Shown here: positions 2,329 to 56,099 of the stretch, piece after piece
Layout: each line of letters opens with the position of its first letter
How positions within the stretch are numbered: the first letter of the stretch is position 1
Assembly (NCBI GenBank): GCA_965204745.1
Contig: OZ242010.1
Location: 1,760,001 to 1,824,000, forward strand
Length of the DNA: 64,000 nt
Direction: 5' to 3'
Source: Candidatus Latescibacterota bacterium
GTDB lineage: Bacteria > Latescibacterota > UBA2968
The notes under the pieces: model-generated
Seen by the model: the letters and a program-made list of their open reading frames with translations, nothing else
Told to the model about the DNA's origin: nothing
Databases searched by the model: none
Translations under genes and position numbers: made by a program

Positions 2329-2545
2329 GAGGTGAGACGGGATTTTAGCCACAAAAGGCACAAAAGGCACAAAAGGTGAGACGGGAGAGGTAAGAGGCGA
2401 GAGGTAAGAGGCAAGAGGTAAGAGGCGAGAGGCGAGAGGCGAGAGGCGAGAGGCGAGAGGCGAGAGGTAAGAGGTAAGAGGCGAGAGGCGAGAGGCGAGA
2501 GGCGAGAGGCGAGAGGCGAGAGGCGAGAGGCGAGAGGCGAGAAGG
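2322..2545. repeat. Compound tandem repeat: 9-mers (CACAAAAGG) then about 23 heptamers (GCGAGAG/GTAAGAG/GCAAGAG)
   Basis: Directly visible periodic sequence. Confidence 0.95.
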
Positions 2546-2638
2546 CCACCCAACCCCAAAAGCGGATCGCGGATGAAATGCGAAATGTAGGGATAGGCTC
2601 CTGTGCTTGGTAAAAAGAGACGCGAAAGGAAGATAAAT

Positions 2639-15778: not shown

Positions 15779-15853
15779 TGAAAATCTCTGCTGTGCAGGT
15801 GAAAGGTGGGGTTGCAAAGGGTGGGATGATCGTCGTGCAGAACGCCCGCGGGA

Positions 15854-16273
15854 TTAGATGCCGAGGTCATCCAAATCCTCCAGTTCATCCAATCCCTCGT
15901 CTTCGTCCATCAAGGGGTCTATATCTCGAATCACAACGAGAATAGATGCCTGCGGGACGATGACATATTTCTCGCCTTCAAAAGAAATCTCCATCGCGGC
16001 CTTTTGCAAAAACAGGGCAAAATCGCCTTCTTCAACTTGCAGGGGCAAATACCGCGGCTCGCTGGGCGCGTCTTGCCAGGGTTCGTCATCTTCGGGCGTT
16101 TCCGGCAAGGGCAAGCCAGGCCCAGTCGCCAAAATGCGCCCGCCCTGCACATCCTCTTTTTCCATCACGGTCTGCGGCAAATAAAGCCCGACTTTGGTGC
16201 GGTCTTCCAAATCTTCCCGCTGGATCAAAACCCGATCCCCAATCACGATCAACTCTCTGTTGCCCATTCGCAT
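15854..16273 (-). CDS. GroES/Cpn10-family co-chaperone with acidic tail
   Basis: IGDRVLI, TKVGLYLP, GRILATGPG, PLQVEEGD. Confidence 0.8.
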   Translation of the reverse strand: MRMGNRELIVIGDRVLIQREDLEDRTKVGLYLPQTVMEKEDVQGGRILATGPGLPLPETPEDDEPWQDAPSEPRYLPLQVEEGDFALFLQKAAMEISFEGEKYVIVPQASILVVIRDIDPLMDEDEGLDELEDLDDLGI

Positions 16274-16381
16274 TGTGATTTCCCATTTTGTGTGAACGCG
16301 GTCAAACTCATGCGTCAAACGTAAAAAATTATCTCCGAAGTGTCAACAGTCGCGTAAGAGGTAAGATACTCTCTTAAAAGG

Positions 16382-17389
16382 TCAAGGGGTTTTCGGGGTG
16401 ATTCGATAGAATTTTTCGCCCTCAAAATCTTGGTCATGGCGCAACATGCCCCAGATCGAATGGAGCAACTTTCGCATCACCGCAACGATAGCCTGCAAAG
16501 GTTTCTTGCCGCGGGCGATGAGTTGGTCATAGAAGGCTTTGACATGGCCTTCGTGTCTGATGGCCACCCAGGCAGGCATATAGAGGGCATGGCGGAGGTA
16601 CTTATTCCCGGTTTTCGAGATGCGTCTTTGTGGATTGGCGGTTCCGGATTGTTTGGGTTTGGGATCCAGGCCTGCATGTGCGACCCACTGGGGCGGTTGC
16701 ATCTCCTCTGGCAAAAGGGTCAACTCGGCCAAGAGCCGCAAGGCACTCGTTTGCGCGATGCCAGGCGTCGAGCAGAGGCGTTGGTAGGCACGCTTGAGGG
16801 GCTCATCGTGCAAAACGAGATCGAGGGCTTGGCTTTCCAAGTATGCAATCCGGCGTTTGAAGTGTCGAATATTCACCTGAATATCGCGTGCGATGAGACG
16901 TGTGCTGCGGATGTGGTAGCTCTGCGCGTGGTTGCGGCTCTGTTCGCGGATGATCTCCTGCTTGAGTTGGTCAATGCGTCTGGTGAGGGCTTGCAGTTGA
17001 AGCCGTTGCTCGCTCGGCGCTTGCCAAGGCACAAAAGGCATGCGCTCGGCATAGTCGAGGATCAACAACGCATCCTTCGCATCCGTCTTCGCCCGTTGCA
17101 TGCAGGCTTGGGCGTACTTGCTCATCGCTTTGGGATTGACGACCATGACCTTTGTGTGGCGATGCCGATGCAAGGCCAAGGCCACCCCCAAACTGTAAAG
17201 CCCGGTCGCTTCGAGGCACACAGAGACCATGTGCCCGCCCTTCGTGAGCCACTTCAGCAACCGCTTATGCGCTTGGGGATCATTGGCAAAGGTCGCTTGC
17301 ATGACAGCTTGTCCGGGTCTGGACAGGGCAACGGACAACGTGCGGGCACTGACATCAATGCCGGCAAAAGCGGGGTGAGATTTCGACAT
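16382..17389 (-). CDS. IS110 recombinase/transposase
   Basis: DEDD residues (GIDVS, LEATG, KTDAKDA); PGI, AGLDP...QSG catalytic Ser, ISKTGN, AVMRKL. Confidence 0.95.
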   Translation of the reverse strand: MSKSHPAFAGIDVSARTLSVALSRPGQAVMQATFANDPQAHKRLLKWLTKGGHMVSVCLEATGLYSLGVALALHRHRHTKVMVVNPKAMSKYAQACMQRAKTDAKDALLILDYAERMPFVPWQAPSEQRLQLQALTRRIDQLKQEIIREQSRNHAQSYHIRSTRLIARDIQVNIRHFKRRIAYLESQALDLVLHDEPLKRAYQRLCSTPGIAQTSALRLLAELTLLPEEMQPPQWVAHAGLDPKPKQSGTANPQRRISKTGNKYLRHALYMPAWVAIRHEGHVKAFYDQLIARGKKPLQAIVAVMRKLLHSIWGMLRHDQDFEGEKFYRITPKTP

Positions 17390-17454
17390 GGGGGCCTCCT
17401 GTGATGAGGGGGTTGTAAGGGATCTGGTGCGCGCTCGGGGTCGCGTCCCGACCA

Positions 17455-17640
17455 TTGACGCCAAGTCTACCGGTCTTGTATATGCAGCCTCAAGGGGCTT
17501 AGATACTCTTCGGCATAGACCCGGCGGTCGGGGGGCCTATCTTACCTACAAGGTCATCGCCTTCAAGAGGGGCCGGCCTTCCCCGAGCCGGGCATCAAGA
17601 TGGCTTATCTCGATACGAGGGCGCAACTCCTAATTAACCC
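17455..17640 (-). ncRNA. Predicted bridge RNA in the IS110 left end (boundaries approximate)
   Basis: Four guide segments match donor and target halves (17566-17574, 17541-17547, 17501-17509, 17475-17481). Confidence 0.85.
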
Positions 17641-17771
17641 TTACTTCCAAGATACAAGAGGGGAGAGGCGAGAGGCGAGAGGCAAGCGGTAAGAGGCAAG
17701 AGGGAGAAGGCCACATTGATATTACCGCTTGGTTTGCTGAACGCCGTTCGCCCATTTGGCAGAATAAAATC

Positions 17772-17800
17772 TTGACAAATGACCCAATAAGGCATATTAT
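17772..17800 (+). promoter_or_regulatory. Sigma70-type promoter
   Basis: TTGACA-N17-TATTAT. Confidence 0.7.
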
Positions 17801-17835
17801 TTTGCCCGCGTTGTTTTGGCTTGAGGAGTCGTTCC

Positions 17836-17931
17836 ATGTTGTCTCTCTTTCCCATCCCGCAAATGGCAATGCCCGTCGTTGTACGGGCGATGCCCGTCGT
17901 ACATTTCCCTCGTGGGCGGGAGCATGGATAG
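17836..17931 (+). CDS. Candidate 31-aa small protein or leader peptide
   Basis: GAGGAG RBS; MLSLFPIPQMAMPVVVRAMPVVHFPRGREHG; lies between a promoter and a terminator. Confidence 0.45.
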   Translation: MLSLFPIPQMAMPVVVRAMPVVHFPRGREHG

Positions 17932-17958
17932 CGGATCATTTTGGTCGTTTGACACGTA

Positions 17959-17993
17959 AAAAGCCGTTGGAATGTTCCGTTCCAGCGGCTTTT
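17959..17993 (+). terminator. Intrinsic terminator or attenuator hairpin upstream of holB
   Basis: AAAAGCCGTTGGAA-N7-TTCCAGCGGCTTTT. Confidence 0.7.
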
Positions 17994-18011
17994 CATCATG
18001 GAGATGTTGCG

Positions 18012-19049
18012 TTGAACCGGGTGATTGGACAAGCGCGAGCGGTTCGGGTTTTGACCGACTGGGTCGAAAAAGACCGCATCCCACACGCGCTGTTGTTTTT
18101 GGGCACGTCGGGCACGGGCGCGGTGGCCGCGGCCTTGGATTTTGTGCAGGCATTGCACTGCCGATCCGACGGCGCGGTCGCCTGCGGGCATTGCCCGGCC
18201 TGTCACAAGGTCGAAACGCGCAATCACCCGGACAGCAACATGCTCTTTCCCTTTGCCCGTAGCGTGGAAGAGGACGACATGCAGGCGGCACTCCTCGAAG
18301 TGTGGCAATCGCCATATCACTATTCCCCGCCCGGCGACAACGAGACCATCGCTATCGACTACGTGCGGCAAATGCAGCGGCAGTTCGCCCACAGCGCGTT
18401 TGCAGGCGGCTGGCGCACGGCCCTCGTATTGCACGCGGAGCAGATGCGCGTCGAAGCGGCCAATGCCATGCTAAAAATACTGGAGGAACCGCCGGATCGC
18501 TCCCTGATGATTTTGGTCGCCTCTCCCAAAGACGCGCTGTTGCCCACCATTTTGTCCCGGTGCCAGTTCGTCAAATTTCCCGCGCTGTTGCCCGCCGACA
18601 TCAGCACGGGGTTGGCGGCACAGGGCGTTGACCCAACCACAGCGGATTTTATTGCGCGCACCTGTGGGGGCGATTTTCGGCGCGCAATGGCCATGACAGA
18701 CGGCCATGTTGCAGACCGGCAGGATCGCGCATTTCGGTTTTTGGACGCCTTGCTGTGGGGGCAGGACGAGCGCACGTTTGAAGCCCTGGCAAAACTCGAC
18801 CGGGAAGAGGCGTTGGAGATTTTGGCAGGCGTAGAGGTCTGGCTGCGAGACGCGCTGTTGTTGCAATGCGGCCGCGCAGACGAGATCGCCAATCAGGCGG
18901 ACCGCGTCGAGCGACTGGCAGAGGTTTTCGATCTCGACCACCTCATGGCAGCCGTAAAAAAGATCGAATCCCTGCGCGAAATGAACCACCGCAATGTGAA
19001 TATGAACCTGGGCCTGATCTCGTTTTGGCAACGGATTCGGTCCTTTTGA
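18012..19049 (+). CDS. holB: DNA polymerase III delta' subunit
   Basis: RIPHALLFLG, CGHCPAC, NHPD, AANAMLKILEEPP, LLPTILSRCQ; start approximate. Confidence 0.9.
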   Translation: MNRVIGQARAVRVLTDWVEKDRIPHALLFLGTSGTGAVAAALDFVQALHCRSDGAVACGHCPACHKVETRNHPDSNMLFPFARSVEEDDMQAALLEVWQSPYHYSPPGDNETIAIDYVRQMQRQFAHSAFAGGWRTALVLHAEQMRVEAANAMLKILEEPPDRSLMILVASPKDALLPTILSRCQFVKFPALLPADISTGLAAQGVDPTTADFIARTCGGDFRRAMAMTDGHVADRQDRAFRFLDALLWGQDERTFEALAKLDREEALEILAGVEVWLRDALLLQCGRADEIANQADRVERLAEVFDLDHLMAAVKKIESLREMNHRNVNMNLGLISFWQRIRSF

Positions 19050-26075: not shown

Positions 26076-26996
26076 ATGCCCATTCCGCAATCGGATAAAA
26101 TTTGGTTCAATGGGAATTTCGTGAATTGGGACGATGCCAAAATTCATGTGCTATCCCATGTGATACACTACGGTTCGAGCGTTTTCGAGGGGATCCGCTG
26201 TTATCAAACGGCGCGAGGGCCGGCGTGTTTCAGGCTTGGGGATCACGTCAACAGGCTTTGCGATTCCGCCAAAATCTACCGCTTGGACATTCCCTACACG
26301 CACGCCCAGCTCGAAGACGCCATTTTGGAGACGATCCGCGTGAACCGGTTGCAAGCGTGTTACGTCCGCCCCGTGGCGTTTCGGGGGTTTGGCGAACTGG
26401 CCGTCAACCCGATGCCCTGCCCTGTGGAAGTGGTGATCGCGGTGTGGGAATGGGGCAAGTACCTCGGCCCCGAGGCATTGGAAAAAGGCGTCTCAGCGCG
26501 CTTCGCGTCGTGGAATCGCTTTGCCCCCAACACCATGCCGTCACTCGCCAAAGTGGCTGCGAATTACATGAACGCCCAGTTAATCAAAATGGAAGCCATG
26601 GCCGATGGGTACGCCGAAGGCATTGCCTTAGACACGCAGGGCTATGTGAGCGAAGGCAGCGGCGAGAACATCTTCATGGTGAAAAACGGGCGGATTTACA
26701 CGCCTTCCACCGAGTCGTCCATCCTGCCCGGCATCACGCGCCACACAGTGATCACACTCGCCCGCGCCTTGGGCTACTCCGTGACGACCCGCCCCATTCC
26801 CCGCGAATCCCTGTACATCGCAGACGAGGTATTTTTCACGGGTAGCGCGGCGGAAATCACCCCGGTCACGGCCATCGACCACATTCCAGTCGGCGGCGGT
26901 GCCCGCGGCGAAATCACGCACCAACTCCAAGAAGCCTTTTTCGAGGTCGTAGAAGGCAGAACAGAAGACAAACACGCCTGGCTGACGTATGTGTAA
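26076..26996 (+). CDS. ilvE: Branched-chain amino acid aminotransferase
   Basis: HYGSSVFEGIR, AKVAANY, EGSGENIF, ILPGITR, ADEVFFTGSAAEI. Confidence 0.96.
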   Translation: MPIPQSDKIWFNGNFVNWDDAKIHVLSHVIHYGSSVFEGIRCYQTARGPACFRLGDHVNRLCDSAKIYRLDIPYTHAQLEDAILETIRVNRLQACYVRPVAFRGFGELAVNPMPCPVEVVIAVWEWGKYLGPEALEKGVSARFASWNRFAPNTMPSLAKVAANYMNAQLIKMEAMADGYAEGIALDTQGYVSEGSGENIFMVKNGRIYTPSTESSILPGITRHTVITLARALGYSVTTRPIPRESLYIADEVFFTGSAAEITPVTAIDHIPVGGGARGEITHQLQEAFFEVVEGRTEDKHAWLTYV

Positions 26997-27072
26997 CCTG
27001 AAAATCGGCGATCACCGGCGAACTTTACCGCGCAATGACAATGCGATAACTTTTAGCGAAAGGAGAAAACCC

Positions 27073-28560
27073 ATGTCGCATACTCGCCTCTACCTGTTCG
27101 CAAATGTGATGATGCTGGCTTTGACCGCATGCGGGAGTGAGAAGTACTCTCGATATCCGTTCCCTGAGCCTATTCCGGCAACCGAAGGGGCCATTACAGT
27201 GACCACCGCCGAGTTCGCATCCCTGCCCGATATTGACGGTCAGGCGGCGTTGATGATGTTGCTCGTCGATGAGCCGGGCACGGGCCGCTTGTTTGTGAAC
27301 GACCTGTCCGGTGTATTGTACAGCGTCAGTTACGACGGGCGCACTGTTGTGCCCTATCTCGATCACACTGACGCGCTATGGGGACTCGGAGTCAGAAAAC
27401 CTATATTGGAAGCAACTGCTTACCAACCAAGGAGACGAAGAGGATTTCAGAGTTTCGCTTTCCACCCGCAGTTCGCCGAGGTTGGCGCACCGAGGTTCGG
27501 TAAGTTCTACACTTTAGTCGAATTACACAACGAAACCAAGTATCTATCCCTGCTGGAGTGGACAGCGGAGGATCCCTACGCTGCGTTCTACGATGGCGGC
27601 CCGCCGAGGGAAGTCATGCGGAGCGAGCGATTGCCGGGTGATCGTTACTCCGGTATGCTCGGCTTCAATCCAAGTGCAACCCCCGAGGATCCCGACTTTG
27701 GGCTACTTTACTGGTCGATAGGCGGTGGATTAAACGAAGTCTGGTCTCAAGATCTGAGCAATATGTTCGGCAAGATACTCCGCATTGACCCGCTTGGCTC
27801 AAATAGCACCAACGGGCAGTACGGCATTCCCGCGGATAACCCATTTGTCTCAACGCGCAATGCGCTCGCCGAAATCTACGCCTACGGCATGCGCCACCCG
27901 CAACGCTTTGGCTGGGACGTACGAAACGGCAACCTGTTCGTCGCAGACATCGGTGGGGAGTTTGTCGAGGAAATCAGCCTTGTCACTGCTGGAGCCAACC
28001 TCGGCTGGCCTATATGGAGGGGGAGTTTTCTACGTGGTGACGATTGGCGCGACGACTGGCGCATCGTCGTCAGACTGGGCGAGAATGTGGTTCGGGCGAT
28101 CCGGGAAGGGCACTTCCGGATCCACCGTCCTTATGATTACCATGTCATCGATTTGGACAATCCCCGTAGCGACGCCAGCTTCACCTATCCCGTTGTCGAG
28201 TTTGACCACAGGGACCCGCTGTGGGAAACTCAAAGCACTGCCATAACCGGTGTCGTCGTTTACCGTCACGCTGCGATTCCCCAACTCGAGAACACGGTGC
28301 TCTTTGGCGAATTGGTCAGCGGCGAGGTGTTCTATTTTTTTGCGGACGATCTGCCCGAAGGCGGTCAAGCCGCCATTCGCCGGGTGCGGTTTGAGCATCG
28401 GGGCGAAACAAAGACCCTGTTGCAGATGATCCAAGAGAAGAATATCGCGCAGGGACGCGAGCCTACTGACCGTGCGGATCTGCGATTCGGCACAGGGCCG
28501 AATGGGCAGATATTCTTGCTCAACAAGCAAGACGGGATCATTCGCCGCCTCATGCCGTAG
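27073..28560 (+). CDS. PQQ/sorbosone-dehydrogenase-like beta-propeller lipoprotein, copy 2
   Basis: LTAC lipobox; AFHPQF, GKILRID, YGIPADNPF, EIYAYGMRHP, GANLGWP. Confidence 0.85.
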   Translation: MSHTRLYLFANVMMLALTACGSEKYSRYPFPEPIPATEGAITVTTAEFASLPDIDGQAALMMLLVDEPGTGRLFVNDLSGVLYSVSYDGRTVVPYLDHTDALWGLGVRKPILEATAYQPRRRRGFQSFAFHPQFAEVGAPRFGKFYTLVELHNETKYLSLLEWTAEDPYAAFYDGGPPREVMRSERLPGDRYSGMLGFNPSATPEDPDFGLLYWSIGGGLNEVWSQDLSNMFGKILRIDPLGSNSTNGQYGIPADNPFVSTRNALAEIYAYGMRHPQRFGWDVRNGNLFVADIGGEFVEEISLVTAGANLGWPIWRGSFLRGDDWRDDWRIVVRLGENVVRAIREGHFRIHRPYDYHVIDLDNPRSDASFTYPVVEFDHRDPLWETQSTAITGVVVYRHAAIPQLENTVLFGELVSGEVFYFFADDLPEGGQAAIRRVRFEHRGETKTLLQMIQEKNIAQGREPTDRADLRFGTGPNGQIFLLNKQDGIIRRLMP

Positions 28561-28688: not shown

Positions 28689-30260
28689 TTGTTGAATATT
28701 CGTCTCTACTTGTTAGCAAATATGATGATGGCGTGGTCGGCCTTGACCGTGTGCCTTTTGGAGCATCATATCTACATCCCCAAAGATCCGTCTGATGGTT
28801 ATAGGTTTGTCATCTCTCTTGTTAGATATTTATGCCCCCCCCCTCGCCAAGATCCGTTCCCTAAGGCTATTCCGGCAACCGAAGGGGCCATTACAGTGAA
28901 CATCGTCGAGTTCGCATCCCTGCCCGATATCAGCGACGGTCGGGTAGCGCCGATGATGTTGCTCGTCGATGAACCGGGCACGGGCCGCTTGTTTGTGAAC
29001 GACCAGTCCGGCGTATTGTACAGCATCAGTTACGACGGGCGCACTGTTGTGCCCTATCTCGATCACACTGACGCGCTATGGGGAATCGAGGTGCGAAGAA
29101 AAAACCTTTGGCCCAGAGACAAACGCGAGTTACGCGGGTTTCATAGTTTCGCCTTCCATCCGCAGTTCGCCGAGGCGGGCACACCGGGGTTCGGTAGGTT
29201 CTACACCTTTGTCGAATCGCGCAACGAAACCGATGATCTACTCCTGCTGGAGTGGACAGCGGCGGATCCCTACGCCGCGTTCTACGATGGCGGCCCGCCG
29301 AGGGAACTCATGCGGAAGCCATGTGTTAAGGATCATTGCTCTGGTATGCTCGGCTTCAATCCAAGTGCAACCCCCGGGGATACTGACTTTGGGCTACTTT
29401 ACATGTCGATAGGCGATGGATTAAACGCAGCCTGGTCTCAAGATCTGAGCAATCTATTTGGCAAGATACTCCGCATTGACCCGCTTGGGTCAAACAGCAC
29501 CAATGGGCAGTACGGCATTCCCGCGGACAACCCATTTGTCTCAGCGCGCAATGCGCTCGGCGAAATCTACGCCTACGGCATGCGCCACCCGCAACGCTTT
29601 GGCTGGGATGTACGAAACGGCAACCTGTTCGTCGCAGACATCGGTGAGTACCAGGTTGAGGAGATTAGCCTCGTCCCTGCTGGGGCCAACCTCGGCTGGC
29701 CTAATTGGGAGGGGAGTTTTCTGCTTTTTGACGACTGGCGCGACGACTGGCGCATCATCTTCAGACTGGTCAGAAATGTGGATTGGGCAATCCGGGGGGA
29801 ATGGCCCTGGGCCTTCGGAGATATCTCGCCTGAGGACCACCCTGTCTTGAGTTTGGACAATCTCCGTAGCGACGCCAGCATCACCTATCCCGTTGTCGAG
29901 TTTGACCACAAGGATCCGCTGTTGGGGAGAAGAAGAGTTGCTATAACCGGTGTCGTGGTTTACCGTCACGCTGCGATTCCCCAACTCGAGAACACGGTGC
30001 TCTTTGGCGACTTGGTCAGCGGCGAGGTGTTCTATTTTTCTGCGGACGACCTGCCCGAAGGTGGTCAAGCCGCCATTCGCCGGGTGCGGTTTGAGCATCG
30101 GGGCGAAACAAAGACCCTGTTGCAGATGATCCAAGAGATGAATATCGCGCAGGGACGCGAGCCTGCTCACCGTGCGGATATGCGATTCGGCACCGGGCCG
30201 AATGGGCAGATATTCTTGCTCAACAAGCAAGACGGGATCATTCGCCGCCTCATGCCGTAG
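28689..30260 (+). CDS. PQQ/sorbosone-dehydrogenase-like protein, copy 3 (altered N-terminus)
   Basis: Same motifs. Confidence 0.85.
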   Translation: MLNIRLYLLANMMMAWSALTVCLLEHHIYIPKDPSDGYRFVISLVRYLCPPPRQDPFPKAIPATEGAITVNIVEFASLPDISDGRVAPMMLLVDEPGTGRLFVNDQSGVLYSISYDGRTVVPYLDHTDALWGIEVRRKNLWPRDKRELRGFHSFAFHPQFAEAGTPGFGRFYTFVESRNETDDLLLLEWTAADPYAAFYDGGPPRELMRKPCVKDHCSGMLGFNPSATPGDTDFGLLYMSIGDGLNAAWSQDLSNLFGKILRIDPLGSNSTNGQYGIPADNPFVSARNALGEIYAYGMRHPQRFGWDVRNGNLFVADIGEYQVEEISLVPAGANLGWPNWEGSFLLFDDWRDDWRIIFRLVRNVDWAIRGEWPWAFGDISPEDHPVLSLDNLRSDASITYPVVEFDHKDPLLGRRRVAITGVVVYRHAAIPQLENTVLFGDLVSGEVFYFSADDLPEGGQAAIRRVRFEHRGETKTLLQMIQEMNIAQGREPAHRADMRFGTGPNGQIFLLNKQDGIIRRLMP

Positions 30261-30384: not shown

Positions 30385-31839
30385 TTGTTGAATATTCGCC
30401 TCTACCTGTTCGCAAATGTGATGATGCTGGCTTTGACCGCATGCGGTGGTGGGAGTGGGCGAGAAGATCTGTTCCCTGAGCCTATTCCAGCAACCGAAGG
30501 GGCCATTACAGTGAACATCGCCGAGTTCGCATCCCTGCCCGATATTGACGGTCAGGCGGCGTTGATGATGTTGCTCGTCGATGAACCGGGTACGGGTCGC
30601 TTGTTTGTGAACGACCAGTCTGGCGTATTGTACAGCGTCAGTTATGACGGGCGCACTGTTGTGCCCTATCTCGATCTTGACGCCTTGGGTAGCGCTGTTC
30701 CGACCATATTGCATAGTTTCGCTTTCCACCCGCAGTTCGCCGAGGCTGGCACTCCGGGGTTCGGCAAGTTCTACACCTTGGTCATATTCGAGACCCCCGT
30801 CGAAAAGCCCAACCGAACCATAATCTTGCATCAGTTGTCCATTCTGGAGTGGACAGCGGAGGATCCCTACGCCGCGTTCTACGATGGCGGCCCGCCGAGG
30901 GAAGTCATGCGGAAACCACCGGATATGTGGTCCGGTATGCTCGGTTTCAATCCAAGTGCAACCCCCGGGGATACCGACTTTGGGCTACTTTACATGTCGA
31001 TAGGCGTTGTATACAACAAAGACCGGGCACAAGACCTGAGCAATATACTCGGCAAGATACTCCGCATTGACCCCCTTGGGTCAAACAGCACCAACGGGCA
31101 GTACGGCATTCCCGCGGACAACCCATTTGTCTCAACGCGCAATGCGCTCGCCGAAATCTACGCCTACGGCATGCGCAACCCGCAACGCTTTGGCTGGGAT
31201 GTACGAAACGGCAACCTGTTCGTCGCAGACATCGGTAAACATCATGTTGAGGAGATCAACCTCGTCTCTGCTGGGGCCAACCTCGGCTGGCCTAATTGGG
31301 AGGGGAGTTTTCCTTGGGTTGACGACTGGCGCGACGACTGGCGCATCGTCGTCGGACTGGGCGAGAATGTGGTTCGGGCAATCCGGGAAGGGCACTTTCG
31401 GATCCAGCGTCCTTATGATCACCATGTTTTCAGTTTAGACAACCCCCGTAGCGACTCCAGCATCACCTATCCCGTTGTCGAGTTTGACCACCATGACCCA
31501 TTATTAGGAGAGAGAGTCGCCATAACCGGTGTCGTCGTTTACCGTCACGCTGCGATTCCCCAACTCGAGAACACGGTGCTCTTTGGCGACTTGGTCAGCG
31601 GCGAGGTGTTCTATTTTTCTGCGGACGACCTGCCCGAAGGCGGTCAAGCAGGCATTCGCCGGGTGCGGTTTGAGCATCGGGGCGAAACAAAGACCCTGTT
31701 GCAGATGATTCAAGAGAAGAATATCGCGCAGGGACGCGAGCCTGCTCACCGTGCGGATATGCGATTCGGCACCGGGCCGAATGGGCAGATATTCTTGCTC
31801 AACAAGCGAGATGGGATCATTCGCCGCCTCATGCCGTAG
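30385..31839 (+). CDS. PQQ/sorbosone-dehydrogenase-like lipoprotein, copy 4
   Basis: Same motifs; GMRNP. Confidence 0.85.
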   Translation: MLNIRLYLFANVMMLALTACGGGSGREDLFPEPIPATEGAITVNIAEFASLPDIDGQAALMMLLVDEPGTGRLFVNDQSGVLYSVSYDGRTVVPYLDLDALGSAVPTILHSFAFHPQFAEAGTPGFGKFYTLVIFETPVEKPNRTIILHQLSILEWTAEDPYAAFYDGGPPREVMRKPPDMWSGMLGFNPSATPGDTDFGLLYMSIGVVYNKDRAQDLSNILGKILRIDPLGSNSTNGQYGIPADNPFVSTRNALAEIYAYGMRNPQRFGWDVRNGNLFVADIGKHHVEEINLVSAGANLGWPNWEGSFPWVDDWRDDWRIVVGLGENVVRAIREGHFRIQRPYDHHVFSLDNPRSDSSITYPVVEFDHHDPLLGERVAITGVVVYRHAAIPQLENTVLFGDLVSGEVFYFSADDLPEGGQAGIRRVRFEHRGETKTLLQMIQEKNIAQGREPAHRADMRFGTGPNGQIFLLNKRDGIIRRLMP

Positions 31840-50570: not shown

Positions 50571-50682
50571 GGGAATCTCCTGTGGGAATGGACGGAACGG
50601 GGGACAACTGCAATAGCAGTTCATTGAAGCGTGTAATGGTTGGGGGATTGGGCGGGGACTGACCACTGACTACTGACTACTA

Positions 50683-55992: not shown

Positions 55993-56099
55993 GTAAGAGG
56001 CAAAAGGCAGTAGTCAGCGGTCAGTTGTCAGTTGTCAGTCCGCACCGCCCTGCCGCAAGCCCTAGCCCCAAGTAAGAGGCAAGAAGTAAGAGGCGAGAG
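55993..56099. repeat. Mixed heptamer arrays (GTAAGAG/GCAAGAA and GTCAGTT types)
   Basis: Directly visible. Confidence 0.75.

Follow-up and report, generated by a model that had tools for sequence, protein, structure and literature searches.

The window examined here, a stretch of 64,000 nt from a Latescibacterota genome of 5.48 Mb in one contig (the host genome, G000), carries on its minus strand an insertion sequence of the IS110 family that is very probably active, or was so recently, and that would work as IS621 of Escherichia coli does. Its left end is predicted to encode a bridge RNA whose target guides fit the place where two unit variants, CCCCTCT and T(A/G)CCTCT, meet within tandem arrays of the heptamer NNCCTCT. 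Because the target is a unit junction of this kind, the guides would read which two unit variants adjoin each other. All coordinates below are positions in the window, the element is read on the minus strand, and in flank pairs a hyphen marks the point of insertion. The element and its gene are the following:

16364 to 17656, minus strand: whole IS110-family insertion sequence, 1293 bp with the CT core counted once; its ends are common to 52 full-length copies
16382 to 17389, minus strand: recombinase gene, 335 aa, the sole long frame, of DEDD/Ser type; Shine-Dalgarno sequence AGGAGG at 17400-17395

As judged from its domains, ends, core, RNA architecture and guide matches, the element is an IS110-family member of the IS621 type. 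The recombinase matches PF01548 (DEDD_Tnp_IS110) in Pfam at 1.2e-24 (87.3 bits, cutoff 29), its C-terminal domain matches PF02371 at 4.8e-20, and it scores 213.8 bits against the NCBIfam model NF033542, "IS110 family RNA-guided transposase" (cutoff 140). The best match to a solved structure is ISCro4 (PDB 9t56; E 7.6e-40, residues 7-326), compared by protein alone; the recombinase aligns end to end both with this protein and with IS621 (8wt6, E 5.8e-36). The available text of PMC11208158 gives D11, E60, D102 and D105 among the catalytic residues of IS621; opposite them stand D12, E60, D103 and D106 of the recombinase, and S258, within RISKTG, aligns with the serine in RMSKAG of IS621. The catalytic residues, which an earlier note made from this DNA had described as intact, all align with those of IS621.

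The element begins with TGTATCTTGG at 17656 and finishes with AGAGTATCT at 16364. Terminal inverted repeats are absent: the two ends compared with each other give 11/40 identities, no better than shuffles, and locally they score 8, where shuffles average 6.5. When the flank rows were read by eye, CT stood before the element in 51 of the 52 copies and at its end in all 52. In the copy that lacked the leading CT, an extra base near the 5' end had displaced the extracted flank by one, and by eye this copy lies in CCCCTCT-TGCCT.

Joining the ends of the element gives the donor AGAGTAT-CT-TGTAT, and the empty target rebuilt from the flanks is CTCCCCT-CT-TACCT. Both could be read directly from the ends and flanks as they had first been reported. 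The sequences that would pair with them, together with the two halves of the target, are:

17657 to 17707, minus strand: left half of the target, a heptamer array (Tandem Repeats Finder, period 7, 7.4 copies), with left target CTCCCCT at 17665-17659 and core CT at 17658-17657
16354 to 16363, minus strand: right half of the target, with TACCT at 16363-16359 and then CT-TAC of the next unit
17565 to 17574, minus strand: left target guide GGCCCCUCU plus U, in which CCCCUCU corresponds to target positions 3-9
17541 to 17547, minus strand: right target guide AGGUAAG (DNA AGGTAAG), complementary to CT-TACCT, 7/7
17538 to 17540, minus strand: handshake guide AUA within the target-binding loop, the complement of TAT at donor positions 7-5
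17501 to 17509, minus strand: left donor guide AGAGUAUCU (DNA AGAGTATCT), the same as the last 9 bases of the element, 9/9
17475 to 17481, minus strand: right donor guide AUACAAG (DNA ATACAAG), complementary to CT-TGTAT at the element start, 7/7
17474-17473, minus strand: handshake guide AC of the donor-binding loop, directly after the right donor guide

The four guide strings sit at exactly the coordinates given in the earlier note, with the same numbers of matches. The left target guide GGCCCCTCT (17574-17566) matches the left target at 7 of 9 positions, and the U that follows it matches the first base of the right target; in the subfamily in which that target base is C, the guide base is C as well. 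The same note had given a donor string for IS621, one base away from the donor read here; the string does not occur in the available text of PMC11208160 and PMC11208158, which does state dA3, dA6 and dT7, in agreement with it. According to PMC11208158, the bases directly 3' of the right guides pair across donor and target in a handshake. The ATA that had been pointed out after the right target guide is present at 17540-17538 and pairs with donor positions 7-5, and in 18/18 aligned elements the first handshake base after this guide pairs with donor position 7. In one relative (G097) the handshake base and donor position 7 have both changed and the pairing is retained. On the other side, the first handshake base after the right donor guide faces target position 7 with 13 Watson-Crick pairs, 3 wobbles and 1 mismatch in 17 elements.

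The 267-nt left end that precedes the recombinase folds into a 5' hairpin region and two stem-loops with internal loops, as in a bridge RNA of the IS621 type:

17459 to 17641, minus strand: structured RNA region of the left end (predicted), from folds and from pair counts on an alignment of 18 sequences
17528 to 17586, minus strand: target-binding stem-loop, with outer stems 71-76/124-129 and 79-82/120-123 and inner hairpin 94-97/104-107 (element positions)
17459 to 17526, minus strand: donor-binding stem-loop, with outer stems 131-140/189-198 and 143-146/185-188 and inner hairpin 158-161/168-171 (element positions)

The folding of the left end (273 nt) beats that of shuffles (z = -3.25), and element positions 70-200 folded separately give the two stem-loops with the guides inside the internal loops. 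In the minimum-free-energy fold the guides are partly paired with each other, as expected because the target is CT-rich and the donor near-palindromic. To count pairs, we wrote the bridge-type structure (42 pairs) onto an alignment of 18 left ends from 10 genomes, namely the host, 8 other genomes and one Gemmatimonadota contig (alignment A1). Paired cells amounted to 87.5%, against 33-47% with the partners slid, a comparison biased in favour of the structure because it was drawn from this element. Both sides had changed in 16 of the 42 pairs; helix 2 had 92.2% of paired cells and helix 3 100%, and in helix 4 nine pairs had changed on both sides. Shuffles did as well as the observed alignment in 0/500 trials on four of five measures and in 3/500 for further pair types. 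The prediction that the guides fall within paired internal loops agrees with this, since the two-loop fold holds and its stems keep pairing in the aligned sequences.

A BLAST search of the host genome with the element returned 66 rows, of which 52 were full length and had the same ends. Thirty-seven of these copies are at least 99% identical to the element (31 of them 100%), 8 are at 96.1%, one at 95.7%, one at 94.8% and 5 at 88.5-89.1%. In-phase NNCCTCT heptamers are the array type occupied by 51 of the 52: TCT occurs in phase at at least 3 of 9 positions around the junction in 51/52 copies and in 223 of 5000 random TCT sites (4.5%), so that the array location far exceeds chance. Among the partial rows, 8/14 start at element position 1 and break off between 61 and 878, and one reaches the right end; left-end fragments, some of them with the whole target loop, are commoner in the host genome than right-end fragments. 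It was also observed that at G000:C1:1121591-1124180 two elements, of the 100% and 96% subfamilies, lie head to tail with one TACCTCT unit between them. These are two insertions in neighbouring units of one array, not a duplication.

Forty-five of the 52 copies share the guides of the window copy, and the following flank pairs, like the occupancy figures given below, refer to these 45:

CCCCTCT-TACCT: 20/45 copies
CCCCTCT-TGCCT (G-U wobble variant): 16/45 copies
TACCTCT-TACCT: 4/45 copies
CCCCTCT-CCCGT: 2/45 copies
Other flank pairs: 3 singles

The right flank is TACCT at 24 of the 45. The earlier note had anticipated that other copies would be found in the predicted target, and the two leading flank pairs bear this out. 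Occupancy was 20/25 (80%) for perfect sites, 16/81 (20%) for wobble sites, in which a guide U faces G, and 4/87 (5%) for sites with two mismatches on the left side. From base composition alone, 0.77 occurrences of the perfect 12-mer CCCCTCTTACCT would be expected in the host genome. As a specificity control, we counted junctions of another type: 112 free C(A/G)CCTCT-CCCGT junctions exist in the host and are used by none of its 52 copies.

In the window itself, Tandem Repeats Finder reported an array of period 7 at 17657-17707 and another, of 24 units, at 2374-2542, both outside the listed open reading frames. The empty site had been described as an in-phase heptamer array like the one near 2374-2542, and it is. 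The 24-unit array has CGCCTCT, TACCTCT and TGCCTCT units and carries no copy; the CCCCTCT-T(A/G)CCT junction is absent from it, and no free target site was found anywhere in the window.

Guide alleles differ within the host genome, and their targets differ with them. In subfamily v5 the left guide is UCCCUCU (C to U), the base that follows it is C (U to C) and the right guide is AGGUGAG (A to G); its target is TCCCTCT-CACCT, matching the changed guides. The five copies of the 89% subfamily have the guides CGCCUCU or UGCCUCU with AAGUAAG. Their left flanks are CGCCTCT (3), CACCTCT (1) and TACCTCT (1), the two exceptions being possible G-T wobbles, and their right flanks are TACTT (4) and TACCT (1). 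A dispersed repeat of about 80 nt, present in 20 copies (for example at G000:C1 157621 and 3459725), is made up of G-rich heptamers, CT-rich units (three or four) and GGGGATAGGGCTTGCGG. Five of its members are filled by the 89% subfamily at the same position and 15 are empty, differing by the element alone, and the unfilled members are therefore paralogous empty sites.

Relatives extend this correspondence beyond the host. Element DNA was present in three genomes besides the host among 41 genomes of the order searched, and when 168 genomes of the phylum were searched with the protein, 11 gave a match, host included. Two sister elements, both in Latescibacterota, have the same ends and the same RNA architecture. 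The one in G016 (83% DNA identity) has the guides GAUCC(U/C)CCU and AGAAAAG or AGGAAAG, and none of its 7 copies lies in an array, TTTCT following 6 of them; the G016 genome gave 0 matches to a pattern of four NNCCTCT units. The one in G018 (79% DNA identity) has the guides CUCGCCUCU and AGGGAG, and its 18 copies all lie at NNCCTCT-CCC junctions, 14 of them before CCCGT; the C(A/G)CCTCT-CCCGT type left free in the host is used at 10 of 18 loci examined in G018. Other guides again are found in seven more distant relatives and in the Gemmatimonadota contig, each right guide matching its own right flank. When 18 elements were each set against their own right flank, the right guide outside the core paired at 4.39 of 5 positions; against the flanks of other elements the figure was 2.44 of 5, and 0 of 10,000 permutations reached the own-flank value. 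As far as can be read from sequence, guide changes in subfamilies and relatives track changes in their own flanks, and the guides fit whichever array family the host carries. Compared with most relatives, the window element has its left guide shifted by one base, and one more base matches beyond the core. In another relative, G036 (L102, L106, L093), 2 of 3 copies were observed after CAT, not CT; the left guide loop there ends in CAU and the right end is still CT, and the target-side core may be other than CT.

Several observations weigh against an IS621-like, RNA-guided choice of target, or at least against its completeness. Two 5' bases of the nine in the left target guide are unmatched to the target, and six host copies, the 2 before CCCGT and the 4 after TACCTCT, match the guides poorly. 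The right guide of G018 pairs at 3 of the 5 non-core bases only. Copy v6 (G000:C1:602782-604074, L118) has the guides UGCCUCU and AAGUAAG and lies in TCCCTCT-CACCT, a site that fits the guides of v5 and not its own; its sequence gives a weak mosaic signal between subfamilies, and it may have been mobilised in trans by v5 RNA or its left end may have been converted after insertion. The aligned sequences are kin, and for this reason the figures from shuffles (0/500 and 3/500) and permutations (0/10,000) overstate independence. A search of Rfam over window positions 15800-18300 gave 0 matches with E up to 1, although release 15 may or may not hold a bridge RNA family; as Rfam gave no match, the assignment of the RNA rests on the structure and covariation counts presented here. 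Finally, no circle junction occurs in the contigs of the four sequencing runs X1, X2, X4 and X5.

We also weighed other accounts of the same data. One of them reaches further than targeting: element family and arrays would co-evolve, the arrays being expandable and self-renewing landing pads with unit order as a code, the guide alleles dividing the junctions among themselves and the recombinase, acting on near-cognate neighbouring units, reshuffling or expanding the arrays. The junctions so divided would be CCCCTCT-TACCT, TCCCTCT-CACCT and CGCCTCT-TACTT in the host and CGCCTCT-CCCGT in G018. We consider this account unlikely; if it were true, an IS110 element would drive the evolution of microsatellites and not merely use them.

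Alternatively, the recombinase or a local property of CT-rich DNA might pick the arrays, the complementary strings of the left end being a by-product of repeat-like sequence. The target guides do pair in part with one another and resemble array units, part of the guides is paired in the minimum-free-energy fold, and the host has 511 NNCCTCT stretches of at least 4 units, so that an enzyme preferring CT would often land in one. An enzyme of this sort, however, would hardly account for the use of one unit junction among many while the 112 free junctions of the other type stay unused, nor for v5 and the 89% subfamily, in which single-base changes of guide and flank match each other. Furthermore, relatives with non-repeat targets obey the same rule (none of the permutations did as well), and occupancy falls in step with pairing strength, wobble included. 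Guidance by the RNA is preferred, and choice by protein or DNA property alone appears very unlikely.

A comparably poor prospect is that the element makes or spreads the arrays, as part of a longer mobile unit or through repeated faulty recombination, instead of targeting them. Among the 41 genomes, the four-unit NNCCTCT pattern is matched 528 times in the host and 219 times in G018, the genomes with array-matching guides, and 0 or 1 times in each of the other 39. Besides, some copies are flanked by similar longer stretches on both sides, such as those at G000 5032836 and 3879991. Against this, identical copies differ in flank length and unit order, some having a single unit on one side, and most arrays carry no copy, there being 511 stretches for 52 copies. 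The host is also rich in a second family of heptamers, CAGTNGT (798 stretches), which is present in 9 other genomes of the 41 and was not found in G018; the two families are thus distributed differently among related genomes. Since CAGTNGT arrays exist in the host and in those 9 genomes, heptamer arrays are a trait of the group that arises without the element. The least probable account, that DNA flanked by repeats was duplicated segmentally or recombined homologously, so that copies increased in number otherwise than by transposition, could draw on the roughly 40 nt of right flank shared by the five copies of the 89% subfamily and on the mosaic look of v6, but that flank belongs to the dispersed 20-copy repeat that is empty 15 times, the sequence beyond the arrays is unrelated among the 37 near-identical copies, and every copy ends at the same two bases.

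For an element guided by its bridge RNA, the following course is proposed. A copy would leave the chromosome as a circle, by copy-out or cut-out, and the joining of right and left ends would create the donor AGAGTAT-CT-TGTAT and a promoter (TTGACC, 18 nt, TATCTT). From this junction promoter a bridge RNA of about 190 nt would be transcribed from the left end and bound by the DEDD/Ser recombinase. As complementarity and covariation show, the donor-binding loop pairs with the donor and the target-binding loop with the 12-nt target CCCCTCT-T(A/G)CCT with CT as its central core, CCCCUCU(U) pairing with the bottom strand left of the core and AGGUAAG with the top strand right of it. Strand exchange at CT would then insert the element without any other duplication. 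In this scheme, the arrays would supply many near-identical landing sites.

The promoter has the following right-end half:

16380 to 16385, minus strand: -35-like TTGACC in the right end, holding the recombinase stop codon TGA

The -10-like TATCTT at 17654-17649 would face it in the circular form only, with a spacer of 18 nt, and TTGA occurs at the matching place of the right end in 9 relatives. IS621 has such a junction promoter, in which a right-end -35 meets a -10 only in the circle, according to PMC11208160. By analogy, the joined ends would rebuild a promoter of sigma-70 type. We also considered array units of the type TTGCCTC as a source of a -35 at the native distance in integrated copies, and rejected them: TTG is found there in only 5/52 flanks. 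A 2026 preprint argues for copy-and-paste in IS621, which the 31 identical copies would fit.

In the sequencing runs X1, X2, X4 and X5 (window 16100-17950), contigs cover the element at many times the depth of its flanks, and variant letters in the element region are common to several of the runs. Depth and shared variants indicate that the element family is multi-copy in several samples, some of which are labelled sponge metagenome. One X5 contig departs from the window at 16361 and continues with 20 letters of array sequence, not element; this hints weakly at a site left unfilled in another population.

Other members of the IS110 superfamily, such as IS4321/IS5075 (IS1111 group) and IS1383, also enter a fixed position of a different repeated sequence. 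Unlike the window element, they target the terminal repeats of other transposons, and their guide RNA (seekRNA) is located at the other end of the element. The closest resemblance in architecture is to IS621, as described in PMC11208160 and PMC11208158. The two have in common a two-domain DEDD/Ser recombinase, a CT core and ends that are not inverted repeats. In both, the RNA of the left end, predicted for the window element, has two internal loops besides a 5' stem-loop, and the core is part of its left and right target and donor guides; handshake bases adjoin the right guides on the 3' side; and the natural target is a multi-copy repeat. The donor arms are probably nearly alike, and the window element has a candidate right-end -35 that would meet a -10 in the circle, as that of IS621 does. 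They differ in that the proteins are only distantly related (phmmer E 5.8e-36) and that the left guide of the window element is offset by one base, with its extra matched base past the core. Moreover, IS621 targets a REP palindrome, whereas the window element targets the junction of unit variants in a tandem heptamer array, and the latter has 52 copies, with its perfect sites near saturation.

The mechanism is the published bridge-RNA one. New are the class of natural target, the places where unit variants adjoin each other in a tandem heptamer repeat, and a series of guide alleles within one genome. In the literature found, there was no report of an IS110 element targeting a short tandem heptamer repeat, although the supplementary natural-target tables of PMC11208160 could already include such targets. 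In the papers on IS110 and bridge RNA that were examined for it, the term tandem repeat means duplicated cargo or units of at least 50 bp. A tandem-repeat target had been singled out as the unusual part; this fits the main texts found, and the supplementary target tables could differ.

A tandem simple-sequence repeat would in this way join the natural target classes of bridge-RNA elements, and a guide of 12-14 nt could select one unit-variant junction within a nearly uniform repeat. Within one genome, 52 copies with several guide alleles, and free as well as filled sites that can be counted, provide a natural dose-response of occupancy versus pairing (80%, 20% and 5%), and G000, G016 and G018 show guides retuned to what the host offers. 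The family may therefore be a useful test set for specificity models and the source of an apparently very active natural recombinase.

As regards the arrays themselves, Tandem Repeats Finder reported 606 of period 7 in the host genome, in two families, about 320 CAGTNGT-like and about 270 NNCCTCT-like; 286 arrays of period 9 are also present. A leader that recurs, for instance GGTGGCCTTCT (window 2543-2560, minus strand), directly precedes many NNCCTCT arrays, and the first unit is GCCTTCT, GCCCTCT or GTCTTCT in 190 of the 511 stretches. Some have CAGTNGT arrays or CCTTTTGTG 9-mers just upstream, and the arrays may be parts of larger composite repeats. Further repeat places in the window are 50658-50681 and 56008-56039.

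Two other features of the window were recorded. The frame at 56274-58313 matches the MADS2 methyltransferase of the methylation-associated defence system (NF047738) with 636 bits, below the cutoff of 720. Between 25479 and 31344, the 12-mer GACGACTGGCGC is doubled at four places, about 1.3-2.6 kb apart, inside three neighbouring frames of similar size (26989-28560, 28689-30260 and 30385-31839), which are probably a tandem gene family.

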